A DNA stretch of 38,979 nucleotides from Kayfunavirus LM33P1, in sequence record OZ035813.1, one strand, 5' to 3'. Shown piece after piece: positions 2,694 to 14,434 of this stretch. Made by a program: the position numbers and the translations under genes. The first letter of the stretch is position 1; each line of letters begins with the position of its first letter. The notes under the pieces are model-generated. The model made no database searches, was not told the DNA's origin, and saw only the letters and a list, made by a program, of their open reading frames with translations.

Positions 2694-2716
2694 ACTTAAC
2701 TATCACTATAGGGAAG
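2694..2716 (+). promoter_or_regulatory. phage RNAP promoter (phiOR-like, right end)
   Basis: ACTTAACTATCACTATAGGGAAG; predicted +1 at 2711. Confidence 0.75.
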
Positions 2717-3055: not shown

Positions 3056-3164
3056 CGCAATCATGATAACAATCAACGAAAGGAGGTAGGGATGGACGAG
3101 GAGTCTTATGGGTCGTTCTCTGACGAAGATTATCAGACGGAGTGGGAATACGCGCATTGAAGAC

Positions 3165-3205
3165 CTAAGGTCAGTTCATAGCTGACGCTACTCTACTGAC
3201 CTTAG
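3165..3205 (+). repeat. 10-bp perfect inverted repeat (CTAAGGTCAG / CTGACCTTAG) near the right genome end
   Basis: arms separated by 21 nt; non-coding context. Confidence 0.5.
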
Positions 3206-3368
3206 CTACTGTAGTCAAGGACTTTAGGTAACACCTTAAGAGAAGCTCACTTAGGGTCATCCTACTTATTGGTCTATCCTAGTGTCGCCTGACCTACGGT
3301 CCTTGACCTACAGTGGCTGTGGCCTACAGTAGTGACGATGAGTTTTGGACAAAAAGTTTGAGACCACA

Positions 3369-3580
3369 TCTCACACTTCAAGAACCTCAAGTCTCCCCAT
3401 AGGCCCTCTTTCAGTCCAGACCAAAGGCCCTACCCGTTACTGCTCCTTGCAGTCACAGCCAGTCTATCATAAGGTTGGACAGATGGTCAAGACTTAAGGT
3501 CAACGATAGGCTGAGGCTATGGCTTAGGGAAGGACGATAGGTTGGGACTATTGGTCTTCTTTGAGTCTCTATCTGTATAA
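3369..3580 (+). repeat. predicted direct terminal repeat / genome left end (collapsed single copy)
   Basis: begins TCTCACA like the T7 left end and ends GAGTCTCTATCTGTATAACC resembling the end of the T7 terminal repeat; boundaries approximate. Confidence 0.35.
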
Positions 3581-3700
3581 CCATAAGTCACAACCATAGG
3601 TCACAGCCTACCTCTCACAACCATAAGTCATAACCTACAGTCTCACTAACCTACAGTCTCAACCATAAGACACCAACACCTACAGTCATAGACCTACAGT
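3581..3700 (+). repeat. array of short direct repeats (CCATAAGTCA / CCTACAGTC) next to the predicted terminal repeat
   Basis: at least 9 copies of the 8-10 bp motifs within 120 bp; analogous to the CCTAAAG heptamers at the T7 left end. Confidence 0.6.
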
Positions 3701-3790
3701 TAATAGACACAAGGCTATAGACTTAAGGTCTAAGACATGTTAGTCAAAGACTATATCCTCTTACACCATGGGGCCGACGATAGCTTAATC

Positions 3791-3840
3791 AATATTATTT
3801 CAAATTACCTATTGACTATAGGTCCAGACTATGGCCTAAT
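3791..3840 (+). promoter_or_regulatory. candidate host sigma70 early promoter (A1-like) with AT-rich upstream element
   Basis: AT-rich AATATTATTTCAAATTACCT then TTGACT at 3812-3817; -10 weak (CCTAAT at 17-bp spacing or TAATAG). Confidence 0.35.
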
Positions 3841-3951
3841 AGCTTCCGTCAACACGACACGGCAACAACCGGATAGTGAAGACGCCGGTCCGGTCCGGTT
3901 AAGTAGTCAGCCTGTAAGACATACGAACAACAGGCAACCGACAGAAAGTAG

Positions 3952-3981
3952 TTGACAGGCAGTAACGACTTAAAGTAATAT
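3952..3981 (+). promoter_or_regulatory. host sigma70 early promoter (T7 A3-like)
   Basis: TTGACA, 18-bp spacer, TAATAT; downstream GTACCACAT..GAAAC..GCTCTTTAACAATCTGG resembles the T7 A3 leader. Confidence 0.6.
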
Positions 3982-12116: not shown

Positions 12117-12275
12117 ATGACTGAGGTTGAGAAGAAATACATCGTGGAGCTTGAGGGTCGCGTTCAGTCCTTCGAGGTTCCGTTGTACGCAAAGTCTCTT
12201 GAAGAGGCTACCCTGAAGTCCCAAGAGTATGAGGACGCTGGGTTTGTGGTCGGACGGATTCGCCCTGAGACCTAA
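12117..12275 (+). CDS. host RNA polymerase inhibitor (gp2-like)
   Basis: 52 aa; [15 protein letters not shown]....[10 protein letters not shown] resembles T7 gp2 (HSFEVPIYAETLDEA...AGFEVTRVRP); stop TAA lies inside the next phage promoter. Confidence 0.7.
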
Positions 12276-12293
12276 ACTATCACTGTAGGACAG
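12271..12293 (+). promoter_or_regulatory. phage RNAP promoter (phi2.5-like, variant)
   Basis: CCTAAACTATCACTGTAGGACAG; +1 at 12288. Confidence 0.6.
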
Positions 12294-13968: not shown

Positions 13969-14416
13969 GGTACAGTTCAATCCACGGTCCCGGACCGACG
14001 CTATCTTCGTACACTGTTCGGCTACCAAGCCAGAGATGGACATCGGGGTAGAGACCATCCGTATGTGGCACAAGCAGCAAGGCTGGCTGGACGTAGGCTA
14101 CCACTTTATCATCAAGCGCGATGGCACTGTGGAAGAGGGACGCCCGGTCAATGTCGTAGGGTCACACGTTAAGGACTGGAACTCACGGTCTGTAGGCGTC
14201 TGCCTTGTAGGTGGAATTGACGCTAAGGGCAAGTTTGAAGCTAACTTCACTCCGGCCCAGATGAACTCCCTGCGCAACAAGCTGGCTGACCTGAAGGACT
14301 TGTATCCTCAGGCAGAAATCAAAGCACATCATGACGTAGCACCAAAGGCGTGTCCAAGTTTCGACTTGCAACGCTGGCTGTCTACCAATGAACTGGTCAC
14401 TTCCGACCGAGGCTAA
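13958..14416 (+). CDS. lysozyme, N-acetylmuramoyl-L-alanine amidase (gp3.5)
   Basis: 152 aa; TDAIFVHCSATKP, GWLDVGYHFIIKRDGTVEEGR, HDVAPKACPSFDL, ELVTSDRG nearly identical to T7 gp3.5. Confidence 0.9.
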   Translation: MVSKVQFNPRSRTDAIFVHCSATKPEMDIGVETIRMWHKQQGWLDVGYHFIIKRDGTVEEGRPVNVVGSHVKDWNSRSVGVCLVGGIDAKGKFEANFTPAQMNSLRNKLADLKDLYPQAEIKAHHDVAPKACPSFDLQRWLSTNELVTSDRG

Positions 14417-14434
14417 ACTATCACCGTAGGGATG
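14412..14434 (+). promoter_or_regulatory. phage RNAP promoter (variant)
   Basis: GCTAAACTATCACCGTAGGGATG; +1 at 14429. Confidence 0.6.

Follow-up and report, generated by a model that had tools for sequence, protein, structure and literature searches.

The concatemer junction of the Escherichia phage LM33_P1 carries, on each flank of its predicted terminal repeat (TR), an array of short units in a single orientation, and judged by sequence and position these two arrays are the local form of a family-wide element of T7-type phages, the SRL/SRR arrays. From their position and conservation, the arrays may plausibly act in cis during the processing or packaging of concatemers, and we hypothesize here that the units are putative, redundant, cis-acting protein-binding sites that help to process the concatemer junction, a reading to which we assign a probability of roughly 0.45. 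The kind of array is known, and what we add to it is modest: a definition of the unit, its polarity, its turnover and its lineage-specific cores. SRL and SRR are the names of the arrays that flank the 160-bp TR of T7, where they were reportedly described by Dunn and Studier in 1983, and we take the Kayfunavirus arrays to be their counterparts. To our knowledge, no function has been assigned to the T7 arrays, which have been part of the published sequence since 1983, and no description of the arrays of LM33_P1 or other Kayfunavirus members was found in the literature that we could reach.

The window, by which we mean the whole stretch of 38,979 nucleotides analysed here, was 99.9% identical to LM33_P1 (LT594300 / NC_031937; megablast with 20 kb of the window, matched over the full length). 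The LM33_P1 record has the same length of 38,979 bp and belongs to Kayfunavirus, Studiervirinae, within the K1F group of T7 relatives. The window is a rotated form of this record, record position 1 falling on window position 3377, and the concatemer junction thereby becomes internal; in the record, the array region bears no annotation. Junctions were compared among 27 genomes, comprising 17 Kayfunavirus genomes from GenBank, with Escherichia, Salmonella and Cronobacter as recorded hosts, and 10 IMG/VR contigs. Scans of IMG/VR returned 5 loci with an exact pattern and 24 loci with the gp19.5 protein as anchor.

The TR of LM33_P1 was predicted by homology. The annotation of EcoDS1 places the TR at 1-178 and a 'concatemeric junction' at 177-184 (CTATCTGT), a feature that is also annotated in K11, and alignment of the window to EcoDS1 yields a TR at 3369-3570. 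Window positions 3569-3571 correspond to the right ends of the records of K1F, CR44b and Vec13, and position 3369 to the left ends of those of HC13, LS2 and LS3; the termini of K1F, SH3, SH4 and SH5 have been determined experimentally (PMC4925675). With its one 202-bp copy of the TR the window appears to represent the concatemer-junction form, the boundaries in LM33_P1 being inferred from relatives. The deposited record starts 8 nt inside the inferred TR and contains the repeat once, unannotated, so that virion DNA should measure about 38,979 + 202 = 39,181 bp. The TR begins with TCTCAYA in all 27 genomes, and its length in close relatives lies between 166 and 231 bp. Compared with the 179 bp of K1F, the excess in LM33_P1 is a 20-26-nt insertion (3435-3460, including GTTACTGCTCCTTGCAGTCACAG) that is common to SR04 and absent from K1F, EcoDS1 and LNA5.

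Some further observations concern the TR itself. Both boundaries (3352-3376 and 3554-3578) display YTGAG, then 5-6 nt, then (A)TCT, a pattern present in 27 of 27 Kayfunavirus genomes; with a slash for the boundary, the left one reads TTTGAGACCACA/TCTCACA and the right one TTTGAGTCTCT/ATCTGTA, and unit-like decamers are located about 5-20 nt after each. At the right TR boundary of T7, a YTGAG-type pattern is spaced differently from that of Kayfunavirus. Within the TR, a leftward sigma-70-like promoter can be recognized on the minus strand at 3461-3490 (TTGACC, 18 nt, TAGACT, with a TG extension), and its position resembles that of the leftward A0 promoter annotated inside the T3 repeat.

Table 1. 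Features of the LM33_P1 concatemer junction, in window coordinates.
Feature	Position	Strand	Basis or remark
Phage RNA polymerase promoter phiOR	2694-2716	+	23-nt identity to annotated EcoDS1 phiOR
Perfect 11-bp inverted repeat CTAAGGTCAGT ... ACTGACCTTAG, 19-nt loop	3165-3205	.	DNA fold z = -2.69
Left array (SRR equivalent), units ACCTACGGTC, ACCTACAGTG, GCCTACAGTA	3292-3331	+	Cores, relatives
Near-invariant spacer with left-cut context (...AAAGTTTGAGACCACA/TCTCACA)	3332-3368	+	Identity before the TR
Direct TR, single copy	3369-3570 (202 bp)	+	Begins TCTCACA, ends GAGTCTCT; predicted by homology
ATCTGTAT, concatemer-junction signal	3571-3578	+	Proposed counterpart of T7 class II pause site ATCTGTT
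Right array (SRL equivalent), 8 intact units and 1 decayed	3580-3701	+	Sequence, repeat finders, relatives
Near-palindromic unit-like site GACTTAAGGTC closing the right array	3720-3730	.	Identical 11-mer in the TR, 3491-3501
First early host (sigma-70) promoter	3812-3848	+	3 mismatches in 37 nt to EcoDS1 promoter 469-505
Second early host promoter, strong	3952-3981	+	TTGACA-18-TAATAT

The first unit of the right array starts 10 nt after the end of the TR, and the array is complete before the first host promoter, which marks the end of a non-transcribed leader containing it. Its eight intact decamers (CCATAAGTCA twice, CCATAGGTCA, CCATAAGACA, CCTACAGTCT twice, CCTACAGTCA and CCTACAGTTA) start at 3580, 3593, 3620, 3633, 3649, 3662, 3678 and 3692, and the strict cores, CC(TAC/ATA)[AG]G, at 3581, 3594, 3621, 3634, 3650, 3663, 3679 and 3693, all on the plus strand. 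Starts of successive units are 13, 27, 13, 16, 13, 16 and 14 nt apart, the distance of 27 nt spanning the decayed unit, whose CCTACCT core occupies 3607-3613 (decamer 3606-3615). A preliminary description of this DNA had reported a dense array of short repeats at 3581-3700 with at least nine units; the array is real, while a count of nine is reached by adding the decayed unit to the eight intact ones and is slightly generous. The eight cores fall within 120 nt, whereas the next densest 120-nt stretch of the whole genome, on either strand, holds two, and the maximum in 300 first-order Markov simulations was three. CCTACAGT occurs 12 times in the window compared with 1.6 expected, a count that none of 100 shuffles reached, and six of these 12 copies flank the TR. 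Tandem Repeats Finder likewise delimited overlapping arrays with periods of 13, 16, 27 and 29 at 3579-3708, and a general repeat finder recovered these arrays as well.

In the whole 570-nt junction, unit-like decamers are about five times denser than elsewhere in the genome. A few are on the opposite strand within the right half of the TR (3478, 3546), and a near-palindromic unit-like site other than the one listed in Table 1, GACCTAAGGTC, occurs once, at 3162-3172. An inverted arrangement of units around the right cut was considered and rejected, given the thin support from the few sites obtained with the unit matrix (3478, 3491, 3546). A genome-wide role of the core was likewise dropped. Genome-wide, the four heptamers of the core, together with their reverse complements, are 3-4 times commoner than first- and third-order models predict, but their counts equal the expectation from 6-mer content, and the excess therefore seems to reflect codon or word usage and not a dispersed signal.

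On the other side of the TR, related copies had been announced for 3290-3330, and these were confirmed as the cores of the left array, CCTACGG at 3293 and CCTACAG at 3307 and 3323, the last unit ending 39 nt before the TR. A sigma-70-like match in this array (3303-3330) is weak, with 9 of 12 positions, and probably due to chance. Further left, the inverted repeat of Table 1 lies about 165 nt from the TR, between the left array and a small open reading frame that follows gene 19.5; in EcoDS1 the stem is kept and the loop is different. It could form a DNA or RNA hairpin, as a counterpart of the hairpin proposed for concatemer processing in T7, or be an RNA processing site. The small reading frame (3092-3160), located directly after gene 19.5 and unannotated in the record, comprises 22 codons and is very acidic (MDEESYGSFSDEDYQTEWEYAH).

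Comparison of the termini of relatives placed both arrays at equivalent positions on either side of the TR in each of the 27 Kayfunavirus genomes, and in none of these close relatives were they absent. The orientation of the units is absolute: the 27 genomes contain 245 strict cores on the plus strand and none on the minus strand (172 and 0 in the right array, 73 and 0 in the left). Behind the TR comes ATCTGTAT, with the right array beginning 10-38 nt later, and the left array, situated 37-56 nt before the TR, consists of two to three CCTACRG units in 26 genomes and of one in EcoDS1. From 78 distinct units the logo A-CC(TAC/ATA)AG-TC was obtained, with little information beyond these ten positions.

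Equivalent arrays are present in T7, T3, K11, fPS-7, gh-1 and SP6, and each lineage uses its own core, the one of T7 and T3 being common to both. T7 and T3 have CCTAAAG or CTTAAAG units at both TR flanks with a period of 13 nt, which is strict in T7; the right flank of T7 has about 12-13 units and the left flank five, and another three are located within the left portion of its TR. The core of K11 is CCTGAG (unit ACCTGAGG(T)), on both flanks, and arrays of CCATAGG in gh-1 and of CYTTAGT in SP6 follow the left TR, the comparison for these two phages covering the left genome end. For T7, T3, K11 and Kayfunavirus, the words most frequent in a lineage's right array reappear in its own left array and not in the left arrays of other lineages. 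The main unit of fPS-7, ACCAYTGAGTA, does not occur on the left flank, and CCTAATG was noted on both flanks by visual inspection.

The resemblance to the CCTAAAG arrays of T7, which had been pointed out beforehand, extends to position, core, period, orientation and non-coding nature. As in the SRL and SRR of T7 and T3, the LM33_P1 arrays lie just outside both TR boundaries, the right one after ATCTGT, and consist of units of single orientation with a 7-nt core of the CCTAxAG type and a period of about 13 nt, in non-coding DNA before the early host promoters. Unlike the CCTAAAG of T7, however, the core of LM33_P1 is CCTACAG, one base different, and is joined by a second type, CCATAAG, which is confined to the right array; the units recur every 13-16 nt, where T7 keeps strictly to 13 nt, and the right array has eight of them instead of about 12-13. 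A further difference from T7 is that EcoDS1, a relative with good annotation, has no annotated phiOL promoter behind its array. The fPS podoviruses of Yersinia (Helsettvirus) share both positions relative to the TR, the ATCTGTA signal and a variable copy number. Their repeats measure 10-11 bp where they separate the left TR from promoter P1 and 10-22 bp ahead of the right TR; among isolates of 90-97% identity, the left arrays differ in copy number, from 11 to 34, and the repeats on the right vary too (PMC5923468). They differ in their units (ACCAYTGAGTA, TCATTGAGTA and CCTAATG), in a shorter period and in the absence of the main left-end unit from the right end.

Within Kayfunavirus the array is kept in kind and not in detail, the core being maintained while spacers and copy number turn over. 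The 27 genomes hold 24 distinct versions of the right array, with 3-12 units in 84-184 nt. Runs of identical 14-16-nt units, with five copies in L043 and L039, four in Esher2 and three in EcoDS1, look like recent duplications, and decayed units such as CCAACAG, CCATCGG and CCTACCT are frequent. Mean pairwise identity among the 27 genomes was 0.92 for the 45 nt before the TR, 0.87 for the TR, 1.00 for ATCTGTAT and 0.94, and thus above the TR, for the 100 nt after the array (3700-3800), but 0.71 for the right array; conservation of the junction peaks beside the cuts and is lowest in this array. The unit-like site at 3720-3730 belongs to the stretch with 0.94 identity. An open reading frame at 3737-3955 ('gp0.1', 72 aa, manually added in the record) begins in the conserved 3700-3800 stretch and overlaps the early host promoters, and both a gene and regulatory DNA are possible sources of the conservation there.

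The turnover of the right array, with its apparent tandem duplications, its range of copy numbers, its decayed units and its low identity, is what would be expected of a neutral minisatellite that is made by slippage, has no sequence-specific function and persists in the non-coding DNA beside the genome ends, where replication slippage and unequal recombination are frequent and where it would serve at most as a spacer. Such an origin is possible but, in our view, rather unlikely. It does not readily account for arrays on both flanks in all Kayfunavirus genomes, T7, T3, K11 and fPS-7, and after the left TR in gh-1 and SP6 (the genome end compared for these two), nor for the absolute orientation of the units, nor for a core that stays the same despite unrelated spacers and is common to both arrays in T7, T3, K11 and Kayfunavirus. 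Pure drift should not hold the core or the likeness between the flanks, although gene conversion between the flanks could.

The right array follows directly on a predicted signal for the phage RNA polymerase. ATCTGTAT is unique and invariant directly after the TR in all 27 genomes, its ATCTGT beginning at 3571, the first base past the TR and on the same strand as phiOR. This promoter is directed rightward, and in concatemers transcription from it crosses gene 19.5, the left array, the TR and ATCTGTAT before entering the right array; ten further promoter-like sites in the window carry CTATCACTATAGG as phiOR does. T7 bears the class II signal ATCTGTT at its junction, to which the heptamer of the window, ATCTGTA, is a 6/7 match. 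For T7 polymerase, any base change in ATCTGTT has been reported to abolish termination. Given that ATCTGTAT is invariant in the 27 genomes and that fPS-7 and gh-1 likewise have ATCTGTA, this heptamer suggests a lineage-specific form of the signal.

With the array placed directly behind this invariant, putative pause signal, a transcriptional role of the right array has to be considered, in which it would be a landing zone after ATCTGTAT that shapes pausing or release of the polymerase or shields the early promoters against read-through over the junction; its C/A-rich, G-poor and unstructured transcript might also load Rho. The composition of the array is compatible with this: its plus strand has 12% G and a GC skew of -0.42, with similar values in T7 (9-14% G in Kayfunavirus and T7, unlike in K11), its RNA is essentially unstructured, and CC dinucleotides recur every 13-16 nt. 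The strand skew, however, is absent in K11 and weak in fPS-7 and T3, and the left array, situated upstream of the pause and free of skew, nevertheless has the identical core. Moreover, termination by T7 polymerase at the class II signal reportedly requires a U run further downstream, and no such run is present in the array. We therefore consider a transcriptional role of this type to be quite unlikely.

Several other functions were rejected for the right array. A coding role was ruled out, as no open reading frame of at least 20 aa spans 3598-3736, and the 'hypothetical proteins' annotated there in some relatives are likely artefacts. No Rfam match was obtained at E <= 1, which excludes a known RNA family, and the folding energy of the array transcript (-13 kcal/mol over 140 nt, z = -0.69), being no better than that of shuffled sequences, excludes a structured RNA. 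Within the array no promoter or terminator pattern was detected. Primase sites were dismissed on inspection, the bases needed by T7 primase not being located 3' of the GTC that many units contain and the T7 units having no constant GTC.

It had also been suggested that the repeats might pause the entry of DNA during infection, and in such a role the array would slow or stop the leading end or hold it in the portal or ejection channel. Counted from the left end, the array occupies 212-333 bp, ahead of the early host promoters, and in T7 the left end enters first (PMC13128918). However, the same units stand beside the TR at the trailing right end, the array precedes the promoters whose transcription draws the DNA into the cell, and the length of the array varies two-fold among isolates, from 84 to 184 nt with 3-12 copies, so that a role in entry is disfavoured; we regard it as very improbable, and the earlier suggestion is left unsupported. 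According to work by Garcia, Kemp and Molineux, transcription-independent entry of T7 DNA reportedly halts about 850 bp in, well past the array, and we know of no evidence that this stop depends on sequence.

The reading of the units as binding sites draws on their position, their absolute polarity, the preservation of the core amid the turnover of spacers and the core common to both flanks in four lineages. It is known that packaging of T7 and T3 in vivo requires transcription by the phage polymerase, and packaging depends on an interplay of RNA polymerase, gp18 and gp19 at the junction (PMC3276506, PMC1828717). In the concatemer, the right and left arrays would bracket the single TR. We propose that the units are low-specificity sites for an oligomeric phage protein, the best candidate being gp18, the small terminase subunit, or the gp18-gp19 complex. 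Phage RNA polymerase coming from phiOR would pause at ATCTGTAT, just before the array, and gp18 or gp18-gp19 would be recruited at this point; the bound protein would tag the DNA beyond the TR and, in the course of packaging, assist in placing both cuts and the TR duplication. As the sites would be many and equivalent, single units may decay and arrays may slip to become longer or shorter with the function kept. Viable isolates with 3-12 copies and the decay of single units indicate that any constraint on the array is weak. Other findings speak against binding sites: the 13-16-nt period is out of phase with the DNA helix, CCATAAG units are restricted to the right array, and conservation in the junction is highest beside the cuts and not in the array. 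Furthermore, T3 and T7 are reported to differ in packaging specificity despite their common CCTAAAG core (PMC3276506), and the core can therefore not be the sole determinant of specificity.

Repeated recognition elements for terminase are known from other phages, namely the R sites of lambda cosB, the hexamers on both sides of the cut in P1 pac and pacL/pacR of SPP1. The LM33_P1 arrays, one 10 nt and the other 39 nt away from the TR, resemble them as clusters of short similar sites beside a terminase cut, as in P1 on both sides of it. In contrast to these systems, for which binding of the small terminase subunit has been demonstrated, the LM33_P1 units are putative sites proposed from sequence, and they are unrelated to the elements named. 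Maturation of the T7 type, unlike that of the cosB and pac systems, also needs transcription and duplication of the TR.

Two extensions of the binding-site reading were considered. The core of the unit might be a lineage-specific address for the phage's own packaging machinery, which would contribute to packaging specificity by helping to keep the concatemers of co-infecting T7-like phages apart. As the core differs between genera and is the same on both flanks in four lineages, it would in this case co-evolve with gp18, gp19 or RNA polymerase. We consider an address function doubtful. In a weaker variant, the units would mimic, in reverse, the initiation region of phage promoters and engage the polymerase itself. 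Two promoter-like sites at 12271-12293 and 14412-14434 have CACTGTAGG and CACCGTAGG in place of CACTATAGG. Of their reverse complements, CCTACAGTG equals the unit at 3307 exactly and CCTACGGTG matches the unit at 3293 (CCTACGGTC) at 8 of 9 bases. The match is possibly a coincidence.

The 10-nt unit, its strict polarity, the cores that differ between lineages and the natural isolates with 3 to 12 copies provide clean experimental handles on the element. If the units guide the terminase or the polymerase, they would be part of the minimal packaging signal for transducing particles and phagemids of the T7 type, and the engineering of therapeutic phages such as LM33_P1 would have to preserve them. 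Without such a role, the arrays would be an instructive case of satellite DNA that evolves rapidly inside a very compact genome.
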